Shown: positions 15,155 through 31,107 of the stretch, piece by piece | Layout of the letters: each line of letters opens with the position of its first letter | How positions within the stretch are numbered: position 1 is the stretch's first letter | Source: Escherichia phage EC148 | Strand: one strand, 5' to 3' | Sequence record: NC_106721.1 | Length of the DNA: 64,000 nt | Program-made: the position numbers and the translations under genes | The notes under the pieces: model-generated | Told to the model about the DNA's origin: nothing | Databases searched by the model: none | Seen by the model: only the letters and a program-made list of their open reading frames with translations

Positions 15155-15183
15155 TTGCAGGATGCCCAAAATCTTGATATAAT
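15155..15183 (+). promoter_or_regulatory. T5-type early promoter (TTGCAG-17-TGaTATAAT) heading a ~500-nt untranslated region
   Basis: Extended -10 TG present; conserved ATTTATATTGAATTGAGAGAC downstream; no ORF for ~500 nt. Confidence 0.6.
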
Positions 15184-15682
15184 ATTTATATTGAATTGAG
15201 AGACATTAGTAAAAATTGATTTTGCTAATTTTTCTTGTTTACAATCCGCGATACGGAACAGTTAGGCTGCCCCATTAAGGGTTGTTTTAACTGTTACGTG
15301 TTAGTTTTTAAACAAATAGTTAATAGAATACTTAGCGATCTGCGTCCCATAGGAACCCTGGTAAGGCCTCGAAGCAACCTAGTATGAGGTGGTTGTGAAG
15401 TGAGATGGGAGGAGTGAAAAACTCCGAGACGTGATTCTGTAAGTTATATTGCATCTAGTATGAGCTAGTATATGAAGCATTAGGTGAGCAAATCTGGCTT
15501 AGCGGCCATCCTCAAGGATTTGTGCGATATAGCAAAGCAGCAGCGCAGCGTGAAAGTGGAAGTTGCCACCCCCCTTCAGTATTTGCGATTAATTTGTTGA
15601 GAAATTGACAGTAACAGTTGTTCTATTCTTTCTGAATAGTCCTAAAGAAAACTTATTTTATTTCCAACACAGGAGTATTGTT

Positions 15683-19723: not shown

Positions 19724-19752
19724 TTGCTTAATCCTATAATTCTTGATATAAT
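19724..19752 (+). promoter_or_regulatory. T5-type early promoter (TTGCTT-17-TATAAT, extended TG)
   Basis: Hexamers and spacing read directly. Confidence 0.65.
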
Positions 19753-19809
19753 ATTCTCATAGTTTGAAAGAACTATTCTGTTTAATTCTTAATTAAGGAA
19801 ATATAAAAT

Positions 19810-23976: not shown

Positions 23977-23994
23977 TCTGGTAAATTAAACCTA

Positions 23995-24025
23995 AGGGGA
24001 GGGGGCTATGCTCCTTCCCCTTTTT
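23995..24025 (+). terminator. intrinsic terminator after the D5-like gene
   Basis: G-rich stem pairing with CCTTCCCC (one bulge), then TTTTT. Confidence 0.65.
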
Positions 24026-24058: not shown

Positions 24059-25531
24059 ATGACCTTGTTTAACGTGCAAGCTGTAGTGTTGAAGATGCTT
24101 CTAGCTTCCGAACAGAAGCAAATAGCATTGGAAACATTCTCAAAACTGCATAAAGATCATTTTAATGACGCTTTCTCCTCAATTTACCAAGCCGTCCAGA
24201 ATTATTATAAAAAATATAACACAATGCCGTCCATTGACGCACTTATGCTTGAAGCTAATAGGAACGCCCGCCTTTCTCAAGCCCTAGTCGTCTTAGCTAA
24301 CACTCAAATTCCAGAAGTGAGCATGGAACAGGCACTTGAAGTCCTAGAGGCCGAGTATACACAGGATTTATTCCTGAAGCTTCTAGAAACAGACGTGCTT
24401 CAAGATTTAACAATGCTGGATCAGGGAGAAATTCTCAACCGAGTTGCCTCCCTTCACTTAAAATTAGAAGAGAAAGTAACGAATACTGGAAAAGTATTCA
24501 ACGCAGATAACATGCGTATTTTCCAGAGAGAAGAAGATACCAAACTGAACTTAATCGCTCTTGGTATTTGTAATGAGTTCGATGCTCAAATTGGTTTAGC
24601 TCGCACAGAAACGTTACTGCTTGGTGGTTGGCGTGGTACTGGTAAATCCATTATCTGTTCAAACATACAGGTTCAGCAATATTTGAATGGAGATATTGCT
24701 CCATACTTCTCAATTGAGATGAAAGAACATGAAGTATTTAGACGTAATCTAGCCATGTTAGCCGGGGTATCAGCACTAGCAATGCGTAATAATACTCTAG
24801 AAGGTGCAGCTCTATTGAGATTAGCCAGAACTAGAGCTAGAATGTTCAACGGGGGTGAAGAGCTTTTCGATAACTTCGTTAAACAGTATACAATGGCTAA
24901 GATGAGTGATTTCTACGATATGGAGAGTAAGCTAATAGAGGGGTATGAACTACATACTCCTATGATTATCGTTTATGACCCTGAACTGTCCATTACAACA
25001 GTTGACGTAGAATTAAATAAATTAGTTGCTAGATATGGTGATAAAGTTACAGTAGCTTTACTGGACTATATTAACCAAACCCGACTTCCAGATTCTAAAA
25101 CCATTGATATGTATGACTGGAAGGAACAGATGGTTGTTAGCTCGTCTTTCAAATCCATCTGCCAGAAACATAACGTGGCTGGCGTAGCTCCCTACCAGAT
25201 CGATCAAGATGGTAGAACACGTATGTCAAAGGGGATTCTTGATTCCGCAGACATGGCTGCTAATCTTAATGCTGCTAAAGCTGATAATGGTCAAGGTGCT
25301 ATTATGTTTGACTTTGTTAAGACTCGTTCTTCTGATAGCGTGAAGTTTATGCCTAAAATGAATTGGGAAACTCTGCGAATGGATAATACTACCAACCTAG
25401 CAATGGAAGATATATCTCAAATGGAAGCTGAGTTCGTTATCCCTATTGAGAAGGATAAGCCGGCTCAACCTAAACGTTCTAAGAAAGACAAAACTGAAAA
25501 TTCAACAGGTGAACAGGCCAGCGATATATGA
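24059..25531 (+). CDS. DnaB-like replicative helicase
   Basis: Walker A GGWRGTGKS, FSIEM (DnaB H1a-like) and VALLDY (Walker B-like). Start set at ATG 24059 (AAGGAG RBS), downstream of the terminator the ORF-track start would overlap. Confidence 0.7.
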   Translation: MTLFNVQAVVLKMLLASEQKQIALETFSKLHKDHFNDAFSSIYQAVQNYYKKYNTMPSIDALMLEANRNARLSQALVVLANTQIPEVSMEQALEVLEAEYTQDLFLKLLETDVLQDLTMLDQGEILNRVASLHLKLEEKVTNTGKVFNADNMRIFQREEDTKLNLIALGICNEFDAQIGLARTETLLLGGWRGTGKSIICSNIQVQQYLNGDIAPYFSIEMKEHEVFRRNLAMLAGVSALAMRNNTLEGAALLRLARTRARMFNGGEELFDNFVKQYTMAKMSDFYDMESKLIEGYELHTPMIIVYDPELSITTVDVELNKLVARYGDKVTVALLDYINQTRLPDSKTIDMYDWKEQMVVSSSFKSICQKHNVAGVAPYQIDQDGRTRMSKGILDSADMAANLNAAKADNGQGAIMFDFVKTRSSDSVKFMPKMNWETLRMDNTTNLAMEDISQMEAEFVIPIEKDKPAQPKRSKKDKTENSTGEQASDI

Positions 25532-26418
25532 GTAGAATAACAGAACTACTTGATCTGAAAGGCATTGAATATAAAGACACAGGTGGGGACATCCTCATCT
25601 GTTGTCTCAATCCAGATCATGACGATAAACACCCAAGTTTGCGTATTGATCCTGAAACAGGTATTATGCACTGCTTGAGTTGTGGCTTCGGTAAAGGTAT
25701 ACCGAGCATTTACCATTATTTTAATGAGACTCAGTACCGACAGTCTCCAAGACTATCGCAGGTACGTAAAAAGATTTCAGAGATTAGGAATGGATCTACA
25801 AATCTTGCAATTCCTGAATCTGCTTACCTTTTCGAAGGTGATTTCCGAGGTATAAGTTCTAAGACCTTGAAGAAATACTTTGCTTTCCAACACCAAGCAG
25901 ACTGGGAAGGCAGAATTGTATTCCCAATCACAGATGCTGTTGGACGCAATATCCTATTTTTGGGTCGTTCTATAAACAGTTCTGCCCCTCCTAAATACTT
26001 AGTAAAACCAAAACAAGTTTCACCACCGATTTTCCCTGTACGATATAATACTCCAGTTCTTATTCTAGTTGAAGGTATCTTTGATATGCTGAACCTAGAG
26101 GATAATGGTATAGACTATGCTTCTTGCTGCTTTGGTACACATCAGTTTACTTCAGATAACATTGCAGATAAGTTTAGCCCTTATATTATTGCTGGTGTAA
26201 AAGTTGTTGTTATCTTACTAGATAATGATGCTTCTGGTAATAAAGCTGCACAAGCGTTGGCCAAGCTAATTCGTACAAAAACGCGTTTAACACCTGTAGT
26301 GGCTAACTTTCTTCTACCCGAAGGTAAAGACCCTGGTGACTTAAATAAAGAAGAAATTGATATGTTAGCAAAACGTATTGAAATTTTAGTTGCTGAATCG
26401 CTTAAAGATTTGGTATAA
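25528..26418 (+). CDS. DNA primase (DnaG-like, Zn-binding plus TOPRIM)
   Basis: 296 aa; N-terminal CHC2-type Zn motif (CCLNPDHDDKH...HCLSCG); ATGA overlap with the helicase. Confidence 0.75.
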   Translation: MSRITELLDLKGIEYKDTGGDILICCLNPDHDDKHPSLRIDPETGIMHCLSCGFGKGIPSIYHYFNETQYRQSPRLSQVRKKISEIRNGSTNLAIPESAYLFEGDFRGISSKTLKKYFAFQHQADWEGRIVFPITDAVGRNILFLGRSINSSAPPKYLVKPKQVSPPIFPVRYNTPVLILVEGIFDMLNLEDNGIDYASCCFGTHQFTSDNIADKFSPYIIAGVKVVVILLDNDASGNKAAQALAKLIRTKTRLTPVVANFLLPEGKDPGDLNKEEIDMLAKRIEILVAESLKDLV

Positions 26419-26419
26419 T
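26390..26419 (+). promoter_or_regulatory. sigma70-like promoter inside the primase 3' end, reading into the DNA polymerase gene
   Basis: TTGCTG, 18-nt spacer, TGgTATAAT with extended TG. Confidence 0.5.
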
Positions 26420-26480
26420 ATATTGGTAAGTTAGAGAAGAAACACTGAAGTTATACTTACTTACCAAGAGGAGATTAAAT

Positions 26481-29048
26481 TTGAAAATCGCAGTAGTTGA
26501 TAAAGCTCTAAATAACACTCGTTACGATAAACATTTCCAGCTATACGGCGAGGAAGTTGATGTATTTCATATGTGTAACGAGAAGTTATCTGGTCGTTTG
26601 CTTAAAAAGCACATTACTATTGGAACACCAGAAAATCCATTTGATCCGAATGATTACGATTTTGTTATACTAGTAGGTGCTGAACCTTTCCTGTATTTCG
26701 CAGGTAAGAAAGGCATTGGTGACTATACTGGTAAACGTGTAGAATATAATGGATATGCTAACTGGATTGCAAGTATCAGCCCAGCCCAGTTACACTTTAA
26801 GCCTGAAATGAAACCAGTTTTCGATGCAACAGTAGAGAATATCCACGATATTATCAATGGTCGTGAAAAGATTGCAAAAGCTGGTGATTACCGTCCTATT
26901 ACTGACCCTGATGAGGCGGAAGAATATATCAAGATGGTGTATAATATGGTTATCGGACCTGTCGCATTCGACTCCGAAACCTCAGCACTATACTGTCGAG
27001 ATGGTTATCTGCTTGGTGTTTCTATATCTCACCAAGAGTATCAGGGTGTATATATCGATTCTGATTGTCTCACAGAGGTTGCAGTATATTATCTCCAGAA
27101 AATTCTGGATAGTGAAAACCACACTATTGTTTTTCACAACTTGAAGTTTGATATGCACTTTTATAAGTACCATCTGGGACTTACTTTTGATAAAGCACAT
27201 AAAGAACGCAGGCTCCATGATACAATGTTGCAGCATTATGTTCTAGATGAGCGTCGTGGTACTCATGGCTTGAAATCTCTAGCAATGAAGTATACCGATA
27301 TGGGTGACTATGACTTTGAACTAGATAAGTTCAAAGATGATTACTGCAAAGCACATAAAATCAAGAAAGAAGATTTCACCTATGATTTAATTCCGTTTGA
27401 TATTATGTGGCCTTACGCTGCAAAAGATACCGATGCCACCATACGCTTGCACAACTTCTTCTTACCAAAAATTGAGAAGAATGAAAAACTTTGCAGTCTG
27501 TATTATGATGTTCTAATGCCTGGTTGTGTATTTCTCCAGCGTGTTGAGGATCGTGGTGTACCAATTTCTATTGATCGCTTGAAAGAAGCTCAGTATCAGT
27601 TAACTCATAATCTGAATAAAGCTCGTGAGAAACTATATACTTATCCAGAAGTCGTTCAGCTAGAAAAAGATCAGAATGAAGCGTTTAATCCAAACTCTGT
27701 TAAGCAGCTACGTGTTCTTCTGTTTGATTATGTTGGCTTAACTCCAACAGGTAAATTGACGGATACTGGAGCAGACTCTACAGATGCAGAAGCTCTGAAC
27801 GAACTGGCTACGCAGCATCCAATTGCTAAGACTCTACTAGAGATTCGTAAGCTGACCAAGCTGATCTCTACTTATGTTGAGAAGATTCTTCTGAGTATTG
27901 ATGCAGATGGTTGCATTCGTACTGGTTTCCACGAACATATGACTACTTCTGGTCGTCTGAGTTCTTCTGGTAAACTGAACTTGCAACAGTTACCTCGTGA
28001 TGAATCTATTATCAAGGGTTGTGTAGTAGCTCCTCCTGGGTATCGTGTAATCGCATGGGACTTAACAACTGCGGAAGTTTATTATGCTGCTGTTCTATCT
28101 GGGGATAGAAATATGCAACAGGTATTTATCAATATGAGAAATGAACCTGATAAATACCCGGACTTCCACTCTAACATCGCACACATGGTATTTAAACTCC
28201 AATGCGAGCCTCGTGATGTTAAAAAGTTATTCCCAGCTCTGCGTCAGGCTGCTAAGGCAATTACCTTCGGTATTTTGTATGGTTCTGGCCCAGCTAAAGT
28301 AGCTCATTCTGTTAACGAAGCTCTTCTGGAACAGGCTGCTAAGACAGGAGAACCGTTTGTTGAATGTACTGTTGCGGATGCGAAGGACTATATCGAAACT
28401 TACTTCGGTCAGTTCCCACAGCTTAAGCGTTGGATTGATAAGTGCCACGATCAGATTAAGAATCATGGATTTATCTATAGTCACTTTGGTCGTAAGCGTC
28501 GTCTGCACAATATCCACTCCGAAGACCGTGGTGTTCAGGGTGAAGAAATTCGTTCTGGATTTAACGCAATCATTCAGTCTGCTTCCTCTGATAGCCTCCT
28601 TTTAGGTGCTGTAGATGCAGATAATGAGATCATTTCTCTTGGCCTAGAACAAGAGATGAAGATTGTTATGCTGGTTCATGACTCCGTGGTTGCTATTGTT
28701 CGTGAGGATTTGATCGACCAATACAATGAAATCCTGATTCGTAATATTCAGAAAGACCGTGGTATCAGTATTCCTGGCTGTCCGATTGGTATTGATTCAG
28801 ATTCTGAAGCTGGAGGTTCTCGTGACTATTCTTGTGGTAAGATGAAGAAACAGCACCCATCAATCGCTTGTATTGATGATGATGAATATACTCGTTATGT
28901 CAAGAGTGTATTACTTGATGCAGAGTTCGAGTATAAGAAACTAGCTGCAATGGATAAAGAGCATCCAGATCATAGCAAATACAAGGATGATAAGTTTATT
29001 GCTGTATGTAAAGATTTGGATAACGTAAGAAGGATTCTCGGTGCTTGA
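26481..29048 (+). CDS. DNA polymerase, family A, with 3'-5' exonuclease domain
   Basis: 855 aa; Exo I AFDSETSALY; motif B RQAAKAITFGILYGSG; motif C VHDSVV. TTG start at 26481 with GAGGAG RBS. Confidence 0.9.
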   Translation: MKIAVVDKALNNTRYDKHFQLYGEEVDVFHMCNEKLSGRLLKKHITIGTPENPFDPNDYDFVILVGAEPFLYFAGKKGIGDYTGKRVEYNGYANWIASISPAQLHFKPEMKPVFDATVENIHDIINGREKIAKAGDYRPITDPDEAEEYIKMVYNMVIGPVAFDSETSALYCRDGYLLGVSISHQEYQGVYIDSDCLTEVAVYYLQKILDSENHTIVFHNLKFDMHFYKYHLGLTFDKAHKERRLHDTMLQHYVLDERRGTHGLKSLAMKYTDMGDYDFELDKFKDDYCKAHKIKKEDFTYDLIPFDIMWPYAAKDTDATIRLHNFFLPKIEKNEKLCSLYYDVLMPGCVFLQRVEDRGVPISIDRLKEAQYQLTHNLNKAREKLYTYPEVVQLEKDQNEAFNPNSVKQLRVLLFDYVGLTPTGKLTDTGADSTDAEALNELATQHPIAKTLLEIRKLTKLISTYVEKILLSIDADGCIRTGFHEHMTTSGRLSSSGKLNLQQLPRDESIIKGCVVAPPGYRVIAWDLTTAEVYYAAVLSGDRNMQQVFINMRNEPDKYPDFHSNIAHMVFKLQCEPRDVKKLFPALRQAAKAITFGILYGSGPAKVAHSVNEALLEQAAKTGEPFVECTVADAKDYIETYFGQFPQLKRWIDKCHDQIKNHGFIYSHFGRKRRLHNIHSEDRGVQGEEIRSGFNAIIQSASSDSLLLGAVDADNEIISLGLEQEMKIVMLVHDSVVAIVREDLIDQYNEILIRNIQKDRGISIPGCPIGIDSDSEAGGSRDYSCGKMKKQHPSIACIDDDEYTRYVKSVLLDAEFEYKKLAAMDKEHPDHSKYKDDKFIAVCKDLDNVRRILGA

Positions 29049-29538: not shown

Positions 29539-30887
29539 AGGTTGTTATATCTAATAAAGCCTATTTCAAGCCCGATGATGAACTTTGGGATTATTGTAGT
29601 AAGCAAACCACTTATCACATAGAGACAATGACTAGTAAATACCCTATTATGTATAAGAATAGTGGTGTTGTTGCTAAAGAGATTAAGTGGATTCCTATCA
29701 CGCGTCTGGATTTATTAGATGCTAAAGGAGTAAAATACGAATTAGTAGATAAACGTACATTAGCTCCGGTAGATATACCAAAACCTAAGTTCAAGCTGCG
29801 TGAAGAAGACCAGCTCCCAATATATGAAGAGTGCGATGATACCTGTATTATTAATGGTAAGCCTGGGTTTGGTAAAACTATCCTAGCCCTTGCACTTGCG
29901 TATAAATTTGGCCAGAAAACTTTGGTAATCTGTACGAATACATCCATTCGTGAAATGTGGGCAGCAGAAGTTCGTAAATGGTTTGGGTTTGAACCGGGCA
30001 TTATAGGTTCTGGGAAATACAATATTGATCCACCAATTGTAGTCAGTAATATTCAAACAGTGAATAAACATGCGAATAATCTTTCTAAAGTATTCGGTAC
30101 TGTTATAGTTGATGAAGTTCACCATTGTGTGGCTACAACTTTCACCAACTTCCTAGAAATATCATGTGCTCGCTATAAGATTGGACTATCTGGAACATTA
30201 AAACGGAAAGATGGTCTACAAGTTATGTTCAAAGATTTCTTTGGATATAAGATCTTTAGCCCACCGGTTAATAATACTGTTGCACCTACAATCCATAGGT
30301 ACTCCGTGCCTGTTGAGTTATCAGGAAACCAAAACGTACCATGGGCATTACGTGCTAATGATGTGTATAACCATCCTGAATATCGAGAGACTATTATAAA
30401 CTTAGCACACTTATACGTGAATATGGGGCATAAAGTACTCATTGTAAGTGACAGAACAGAGTTAATCCAAACAGTACTAGAAGCTCTCGCACAGCGTGGT
30501 GTTACAACATATGAAATTATAGGGGCAACCCACTTGGATGACCGATTAAAAATTCAGGAAAATATAGCAAAAGGTGGGCCTTGTGTACTTGCAGCAGCTC
30601 AAAGTATCTTCTCTGAAGGTATTTCCCTTAATGAGCTATCTTGTTTAATAATGGGGAGTCTCATTAATAATGAATCTCTCATTGAACAGCTTGCAGGACG
30701 TGTTCAACGTATTGTCGATGGTAAACTCGACCCTATTGTTGTAGATCTAATTATGAAAGGTGGCACTGGACTAAGACAGGCTTCTGGACGTATGGCAGTA
30801 TATCGTAACAACGGGTGGAAAACTATTACCATGACTCCTGAGAAAGCAGTTCAATTAGCTAAAATTGCATTTGGCAACAGCTCATAA
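29535..30887 (+). CDS. SF2 helicase (T5 D10-like)
   Basis: 450 aa; Walker A GKPGFGKT, Walker B VDEVHH. Confidence 0.75.
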   Translation: MKVVISNKAYFKPDDELWDYCSKQTTYHIETMTSKYPIMYKNSGVVAKEIKWIPITRLDLLDAKGVKYELVDKRTLAPVDIPKPKFKLREEDQLPIYEECDDTCIINGKPGFGKTILALALAYKFGQKTLVICTNTSIREMWAAEVRKWFGFEPGIIGSGKYNIDPPIVVSNIQTVNKHANNLSKVFGTVIVDEVHHCVATTFTNFLEISCARYKIGLSGTLKRKDGLQVMFKDFFGYKIFSPPVNNTVAPTIHRYSVPVELSGNQNVPWALRANDVYNHPEYRETIINLAHLYVNMGHKVLIVSDRTELIQTVLEALAQRGVTTYEIIGATHLDDRLKIQENIAKGGPCVLAAAQSIFSEGISLNELSCLIMGSLINNESLIEQLAGRVQRIVDGKLDPIVVDLIMKGGTGLRQASGRMAVYRNNGWKTITMTPEKAVQLAKIAFGNSS

Positions 30888-30899
30888 ATGATGTATAAT
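30871..30899 (+). promoter_or_regulatory. sigma70-like promoter (TTGGCA-17-TGTATAAT)
   Basis: Overlaps the D10-like stop; followed by ATATACATAAATTTGAGAGAG. Confidence 0.55.
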
Positions 30900-30970
30900 A
30901 TATACATAAATTTGAGAGAGAAAGTTTCGGATTGATAAGAAAGTCCGAAGCAGAAAAATAAAAATTTTAG

Positions 30971-31000
30971 TTGCTAAATTCTCTCGAAATCTAGTATAAT
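30971..31000 (+). promoter_or_regulatory. T5-type early promoter (TTGCTA-18-TATAAT)
   Basis: Second tandem promoter; followed by ATATACATAAATTCGAGGAG with no start codon nearby. Confidence 0.55.
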
Positions 31001-31107
31001 ATATACATAAATTCGAGGAGAAAACAAAAATTAAATTCTTCGATTATGAAAAGCTATACTTACTAGCTAGAGGAAATTCCGACCTAATTATCAAGCTATT
31101 CAAAAGA

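Follow-up and report, generated by a model that had tools for sequence, protein, structure and literature searches.

Two kinds of structured leader are the closest described counterparts of the element reported here. The DNA polymerase gp43 of phages T4 and RB69 is reportedly governed by an autogenous translational operator, in work associated with Andrake and Karam and with Tuerk and Gold. Autoregulation is known for these family B polymerases, and T4 gene 43, thrS and rpsO are examples of genes whose operators abut the Shine–Dalgarno (SD) sequence. The second kind, 5'-terminal stem-loops of the ompA 5' untranslated region (UTR) type, is said to stabilize messages in Escherichia coli, a finding attributed to Emory, Bouvet and Belasco and dated to 1992. 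Here we describe the leader of the DNA polymerase gene (pol) in a window of 64,000 nucleotides (nt) of Escherichia phage EC148 (NC_106721.1), that is, the whole stretch of DNA analysed, whose sequence is referred to as T5 below. Between an early promoter and the ribosome site of this gene lies a hairpin which, judged by comparison with related sequences, is a conserved, covarying RNA element adjoining the SD sequence at the start of the polymerase message. How T5 genes are regulated once the pre-early stage is over is poorly understood, and in the literature found early-gene control is treated as transcriptional.

In the T5 sequence, TTGGTAAGT (26423–26431) pairs perfectly with ACTTACCAA (26459–26467), with 27 nt between the arms, as a first-pass annotation of this DNA had reported. 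What that annotation treated as a plain 27-nt loop has the length given but contains two small helices and a conserved hexaloop, so the element is described below as three helices, P1, P2 and P3, from the outside inwards. P1 ends at −16 relative to the start codon (26465, or 26467 with the outer pairs), and the SD begins at 26468. An alternative register of P2, the one adopted in the minimum free energy (MFE) structure, uses GAG at 26434–26436. A second register also exists for P1, because ACTTACTTACC contains two overlapping copies of ACTTAC.

Leaders were gathered from annotated phages and from IMG/VR (handles such as L032 refer to this set). The stem was kept in five enterobacterial T5-like lineages. 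Across T5, Epseptimavirus, Sugarland, Kamaji, a PR1-like phage (L032, L173) and the Proteus Novosibvirus phages, it begins 3–7 nt after the −10 element and ends 3–5 nt before GGAG. In Pectobacterium phage My1 it is degenerate, with only a weak outer helix of 4–5 base pairs (bp) around a different inner hairpin, and other Vibrio and metagenomic relatives have the promoter followed by a short, unstructured leader. Identity of the non-coding leader to T5 was 0.70–0.79, the level of the better parts of the flanking genes; coding DNA across the compared lineages is about 60–70 % identical. A search of IMG/VR and metagenome contigs with a loop-anchored pattern, in which the stems were left as N, was specific, returning 34 IMG/VR contigs and 13 metagenome contigs (about 10 of them true), yet it yielded no new lineages. 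As a separate observation, the metagenomic T5-like group L051–L091 has a short leader without a hairpin, and a conserved inverted repeat, GATAC-gctataataaa-GTATC, spans its −10 element about 30–10 nt upstream of the pol start.

The substitutions in P1 largely preserve pairing. In the Proteus Novosibvirus phages P1 reads GUUGGAU/AUCCAAC as opposed to GGUAAGU/ACUUACC in T5, with four of the seven pairs changed on both sides and all seven able to pair, and in the Vibrio pVp-1-like phages pair 6 (G–C to U–A) and both outer pairs are changed. Where a change on one side preserves pairing (an L012 variant, Sugarland, Kamaji, L036 and L037), it is always an A-to-G opposite U; such changes keep a G·U wobble only in plus-strand RNA, which agrees with a structure in RNA of that strand. 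The exceptions are a broken terminal pair in L032 (U·C) and the loss of an outer pair in L014.

Pair counts were made on a manual structural alignment and, as a conservative version, on a MAFFT alignment (A6) in which the Proteus stem is mis-registered. On the manual alignment P1 paired in 41 of 42 cells in the true register, against 9–21 of 42 when the 3' arm was slid by 1–3 nt. On A6 the proportion of pairing cells was 94.5 %, a value reached by none of 500 shuffles and compared with 27–44 % for the slid controls, and double changes were present at four pairs. The alignments A4 and A5 of covariance model R1 were left out of the counts, since they place the Proteus stem one column off, an offset already present in the seed alignment.

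The interior of the hairpin shows the same pattern. RNAalifold recovered P1, P2 and P3 even from the MAFFT alignment with the Proteus stem one column off. P2 changes from A–U to G–C in the Proteus phages and P3 from C–G to U–A in L032 and PM135, and the position pair 26440:26453 beside P3 is A·A in T5, A–U in Sugarland and U–A in Kamaji and L032. The recovery and covariation of P2 and P3 indicate that the 27-nt interior is structured. Conservation of the stem in T5-like relatives, which had been put forward as a check on the hairpin, is therefore borne out, with the stem kept and compensating changes found.

The promoter in front of the hairpin fits the T5 pattern AAATTTTAG-TTGCTn-17/18-TATAAT-AtAtt, which occurs at about 13 other sites in the window, and has a spacer of 18 nt between TTGCTG and the −10 hexamer. 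All features of T5 early sigma-70 promoters are present at 26380–26424, namely TTGCTn, the spacer, TGnTATAAT, ATATT and an A/T-rich upstream block. Its location inside the 3' end of the primase gene agrees with the first description of the locus, and the site carries an annotation as putative promoter in T5 st0 and S114. A generic promoter scan of the window did not list it, because TTGCTG matches TTGACA at only three of six positions, and the call relies on resemblance to the T5 promoter family and not on that scan. Judged by the name and the ATATT motif, it is most likely the published early promoter Ppol. In the accessible text of Klimuk et al. (2020; PMC7472727), Ppol is an early T5 promoter validated in vivo by primer extension, its transcripts are present at 20 min and gone after 30 min, and an ATATT discriminator is stated for all T5 early promoters.

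The transcription start can be placed by analogy. The accessible text of the same paper (PMC7472727) gives TATAATAGATTCAT of promoter N25 as −12 to +2, so that +1 is the seventh nt after the −10 element, and by this rule the pol transcript would begin at G26426. G26425 is a plausible alternative, from the pyrimidine–purine step T26424–G26425. A nucleotide-level data set of T5 start sites was not found in the accessible literature. Because both candidate positions lie inside the stem, the two outer T–A pairs would be absent from the promoter's own transcript. The 9-bp stem of the first-pass annotation is thus present in the DNA, and in the promoter's own RNA it would instead be a 5'-terminal stem of 7 bp (start at G26425) or 6 bp (G26426).

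In BF23-type phages a second promoter (TTGCTA-17-TATAAT) stands directly before an unchanged hairpin. Since the insertion in these phages rebuilds a promoter before the same hairpin, promoter, hairpin and SD behave as one module. The insert in BF23 (L002, 1891–2344), found also in L180 and L181, is an open reading frame (ORF) for a hypothetical protein of 110 amino acids (aa) placed exactly after the primase −10 element. L181 also has one additional A where pol starts (TTTAGAAAATC), which probably reflects an error of assembly.

Table 1. Features of the primase–polymerase junction of phage EC148, in coordinates of the 64,000-nt window
Feature	Position	Strand	Basis or remark
Primase ORF	25528–26418	+	Stop codon TAA at 26416–26418
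−35 hexamer TTGCTG of the early promoter (most likely Ppol)	26390–26395	+	Within primase coding region; AAATTTTAG precedes, as in other T5 promoters
Extended −10 element TGgTATAAT	26411–26419	+	Contains the primase TAA (26416–26418); TGnTATAAT in all hairpin-bearing relatives
ATATT discriminator, T5 early-promoter signature	26420–26424	+	Sequence; rule from the accessible text of PMC7472727
Putative transcription start, G26425 or G26426	26425–26426	+	N25 numbering and T5 promoter alignment; first bases of the stem
P1, 5' arm GGUAAGU	26425–26431	+	Two outer pairs, from T26423 and T26424, form only in RNA begun further upstream
P2, 5' side AAG	26437–26439	+	Pairs with CUU 26456–26458; RNAalifold consensus
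P3, 5' side AAC	26441–26443	+	Pairs with GUU 26450–26452
Apical hexaloop ACUGAA, consensus AYUGAM	26444–26449	+	A, U, G and A invariant in 10 of 10 distinct leaders
3' sides of P3 (26450–26452) and P2 (26456–26458)	26450–26458	+	Internal loop AUA between them
P1, 3' arm ACUUACC	26459–26465	+	Longer RNAs also have the pairs T26424:A26466 and T26423:A26467
SD sequence GAGGAG	26468–26473	+	2 nt beyond the core stem; AAGGAG or TAGGAG in relatives
TTG start codon of DNA polymerase	26481–26483	+	ATG at the aligned position in Sugarland, Kamaji, PM135 and My1
DNA polymerase gene, family A, 855 aa	26481–29048	+	ORF; opens with TTG

The gene downstream encodes a family A polymerase whose best solved relatives are the Klenow and Taq enzymes. 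GAGGAG was present where first reported, 7 nt before the TTG, and the TTG start itself was upheld: the same MKIAVVD-type N-terminus begins with ATG in Klebsiella phage Sugarland, Serratia phage Kamaji, Proteus phage PM135 and Pectobacterium phage My1, and this alignment with ATG-started N-termini argues that the start position is right. The idea that a weak start codon and a hairpin form a conserved regulatory pair did not hold. TTG is a trait of T5 and the Epseptimavirus group and of one PR1-like phage, and since lineages with ATG retain the hairpin, the two are not coupled. Among phage records 547 match the region 25528–27000, Escherichia phage T5_ev212 at 100 % identity. Elsewhere in the replication module, T5 st0 (L169, 1575–2108) has an HNH-type ORF between helicase and primase without a counterpart in the window, and the polymerase of PM135 (L188, 2588–4601) is annotated as two coding sequences with an ORF between them; these point to mobile insertions.

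Our tentative preference is that 26425–26465 encodes a 5'-terminal stem-loop of the leader that would shield the message and might also serve as an operator. A three-tier stem-loop (P1 of 7 bp, P2 of 3 bp, P3 of 3–5 bp and the AYUGAM hexaloop) would form the very 5' end of the pol mRNA made from the early promoter and would stop 2 nt short of the SD. The 5' end of the long (56-nt) leader would in this way be capped and shielded from 5'-end-dependent decay by RppH and RNase E, with GAGGAG and UUG left single-stranded for the ribosome. With its conserved apical loop and its position against the ribosome site, the hairpin could also offer a docking site for a trans-acting factor.

Folding models gave P1 a probability of 0.98 with +1 at G26425. 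Whether or not the stem could form, the SD and start codon were unpaired with a probability of 0.5–0.67, and they were about as open in the compensatory mutant and the arm mutants as in the wild type; the models therefore predict that the hairpin is not a self-contained translational block. For the long-leader promoters at 19747, 30995 and 15178 the MFE structure of the transcript begins 0–1 nt from the putative 5' end, and for the short-leader T5 promoters in the window it does not begin there. It is this comparison, together with the placement of the pol stem at +1, that leads us to favour a 5'-terminal stem-loop of the ompA type. As in such stabilizers, pairing is conserved rather than the sequence of the stem; here the loop is conserved in addition.

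Several observations weigh against this preference. With +1 at G26426 only 6 bp of P1 are left and its probability in the folding models falls to 0.05–0.33. In the Proteus phages the seventh nt after the −10 element falls inside the stem, and in five of six lineages the pairing reaches 2–4 bp upstream of the canonical +1, which suggests that selection acts also on RNA begun further upstream, or on processed RNA. A pure stabilizer would not need a conserved apical loop. The disappearance of Ppol transcripts after 30 min, as given in the accessible text of PMC7472727, speaks against a notably long life of these messages. Part of the conservation of the 5' arm is due to the promoter, since this arm is similar to the initial transcribed region conserved in all T5 promoters. 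The covariation evidence comes from about six independent lineages, and when the window for placement is permissive 7 % of shuffles match the Proteus stem taken by itself.

The alternative that survives best, possible though doubtful, is a translational operator, in which a phage protein (the polymerase itself, as the first-pass annotation suggested, or another early protein) would bind the hairpin and its AYUGAM loop and block or trap the 30S subunit at the SD, limiting polymerase synthesis or shutting it off. Bases of the apical and internal loops are invariant while the sequence of P1 has been replaced, a pattern typical of protein-recognized hairpins, and P1 ends at −16 so as to abut the SD. 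As the hairpin by itself leaves the ribosome site open in the models, a translational effect would need a trans-acting factor, and a weak TTG start would ease the out-competing of initiation. However, the T5 enzyme belongs to family A, the relatives that start with ATG retain the hairpin, and several of the positions that appear as conserved loop are in fact pairs of P2 or P3. No family A polymerase is known to do so by autoregulation of its own synthesis, and autoregulation of the T5 polymerase was not found in the accessible literature. A search for the stem and loop motifs elsewhere in the window matched only the pol leader, loop-motif matches being at chance level, so the loop motif has no second copy upstream of other window genes and there is no regulon signal for a general repressor. 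This single occurrence speaks against a regulon under a general repressor, though not against autogenous control, and conservation of the apical loop keeps an operator in play. We consider it unlikely that the hairpin serves as a dedicated operator of translation by which the family A polymerase of T5 or another early protein represses polymerase synthesis.

Somewhat less probable still is that the hairpin acts on read-through RNA from helicase and primase, whether as a processing site and 5' cap, as a protector of the primase 3' end, or as the relic of a terminator or attenuator. Pairing extends 2–4 bp upstream of the canonical +1 in T5, Sugarland, Kamaji (in the second register) and the Proteus and Vibrio phages, and T5 has no terminator between primase and pol. 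RNase E prefers AU-rich single strands next to a hairpin, which the AUAUU 5' of the stem fits. The homologous GGUAAU stem of the Vibrio pVp-1-like phages forms a 13-bp hairpin with UCUUUUUUAUUUU behind it, situated just after the stop of the upstream ORF and overlapping the promoter. The T5 stem, however, has no U-tract, being followed by AAGAGGAG, and a terminator scan found no intrinsic terminator or attenuator there and no terminator-like site in 25400–27000; a G+C-rich stem with a U-tract was met only in the Vibrio relatives L035–L037. The fixed distance of 3–5 nt to the SD is left unexplained by action on read-through RNA, and a strong terminator-like hairpin already lies upstream, at 23994–24022.

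The arrangement in the pVp-1-like phages L035–L037 (about 485–560) deserves description in its own right. TTGCAA-17-TGaTATAAT is followed after 3 nt by the 13-bp hairpin and U-tract, just past the stop of the upstream ORF and about 45 nt before the pol SD, so that a terminator overlaps the pol promoter. T5 shares with it the homologous GGUAAK 5' arm 3–5 nt after the −10 element, and differs in its 27-nt structured interior and the lack of a U-tract.

It is improbable that the conservation reflects promoter function at the DNA level, in the discriminator and initial transcribed sequence, with the complementarity of the 3' arm incidental. T5 promoters carry functional information in the transcribed region, and GGTAAGTTAGAGAAG, which comprises the 5' arm and the start of the interior, aligns at 9 of 13 positions with the (C/T)ATAAATTTGAGAG block downstream of nearly all of them. 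Yet the 3' arm, 28–40 nt downstream, tracks every change of the 5' arm, nearly all one-sided changes run in the G·U-compatible direction, and P2 and P3 covary, none of which a DNA-level function explains. The initial transcribed block therefore accounts for part of the sequence conservation but not for the matching 3' arm.

That the hairpin arose by chance in an AT-rich leader and has no function is highly improbable, and is already disfavoured. The MFE is −10.7 kcal/mol (z = −1.53), with 15 of 200 shuffles folding as well, and comparable repeats are common: perfect 9-bp inverted repeats with a loop of at most 40 nt are expected at about 15 k-mer matches per 64 kb of Markov-1 random sequence, and the window has 58 such matches (about 30 distinct). 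Taken alone the hairpin is not beyond chance, and it exceeds chance only through the comparative evidence: it is conserved, covaries and has a fixed placement in lineages that share about 60–70 % identity in coding DNA. Finally, upstream initiation, in which translation from the apical YUG, of either a short leader ORF or a polymerase with an N-terminal extension, would open P1, is unlikely in the extreme: the conserved YUG (CUG in T5, UUG in PM135 and L032) does follow a purine tract, GAGAAG or AGGAGG, by 4–6 nt, with a perfect AGGAGG in PM135, but CUG is a very poor start codon in E. coli, the substitutions track base pairing and not codons, and the relation of the frame to pol varies among lineages, running into pol in T5 and Kamaji and stopping at UAA just before the SD in Sugarland and L032.

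Other structured leaders and hairpins were seen on the plus strand of the window. At 19747–19790 the putative transcript opens at +1 with a 7-bp hairpin, AUAGUUU-GAAA-GAACUAU, ahead of a 52-nt leader. Right after the D10 helicase gene, 30871–31000 holds two tandem T5-type promoters (−10 elements at 30894 and 30995) with a 10-bp hairpin (about 30923–30950) between them, a layout shared with Sugarland. The long leader of the 30995 promoter contains GAAAAGCTATACTTACTAGCTAGAGGAAAT (31046–31080), which is partly kept in Proteus phage PM135, and has TATACTTACT and AGAGGA in common with the pol leader (26452–26473). At 15178–15245 a further T5-type promoter gives a transcript in which a 10-bp hairpin (ATTAGTAAAA/TTTTGCTAAT), and then TTTTTCTTGTTT, come after about 17 nt; a terminator-like site so close to a promoter may produce a short RNA or act as an attenuator. 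The hairpin at 23994–24022 has 13 bp, is G+C-rich (AAGGGGAGGGGGCTATGCTCCTTCCCCTT) and is followed by TTTGCATTT. Its 5' arm includes the SD-like GGGGAGGGGG and its tip the helicase ATG (24008), and the hairpin may be the terminator of the 22410 unit, a masked ribosome site of the helicase gene, or both.

The promoter of this locus was already known, whereas the structured leader is absent from Rfam and no description of it was found in the accessible literature; a scan of the leader against Rfam 15 gave SpR08 as its sole match, at 15.6 bits against a gathering score of 80 (E = 7.9). Leader RNA between a validated early promoter and the pol ribosome site would offer an easily mutated handle on post-transcriptional control of replication enzymes. 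The promoter–hairpin–SD module travels across the Demerecviridae, even after gene insertions, and is useful for annotation and engineering, as many such phages are therapy candidates against Salmonella, E. coli and Klebsiella. If the hairpin proved to be an operator, a post-transcriptional layer would be added to the poorly understood early-to-late switch of T5, and if the polymerase were the ligand, a family A phage polymerase under autogenous translational control would have been described for the first time.

Compared with known systems, the pol promoter resembles the T5 early promoters, Ppol included, in its TTGCTn −35 hexamer, TGnTATAAT and ATATT discriminator, and early kinetics are reported for Ppol in the accessible text of PMC7472727. 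That paper treats the promoter only, and its accessible text makes no mention of a transcribed hairpin downstream. With the gp43 operator of T4 and RB69 the locus shares a polymerase-leader hairpin placed directly upstream of the SD, in a replication gene of a lytic phage. The T5 enzyme, however, is a Klenow/Taq-like family A polymerase and not a member of family B, and its hairpin of about 41 nt in three tiers differs from the 5-bp stem with an 8-nt loop of gp43 and has no sequence resemblance to it, so that homology between the two systems was not found. The likeness to stabilizers of the ompA 5' UTR type lies in a hairpin within 1 nt of the putative 5' end of a long leader, in structure kept over stem sequence, and in a ribosome site predicted to be open just downstream. 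Unlike in that type, the apical loop and inner helices are conserved too, the start is placed by analogy, and Ppol transcripts are transient according to the accessible text of PMC7472727. The pol leader of T5 would thus be a further example of the cis-acting 5'-leader stem-loops, and the chance that it is a true operator is modest.

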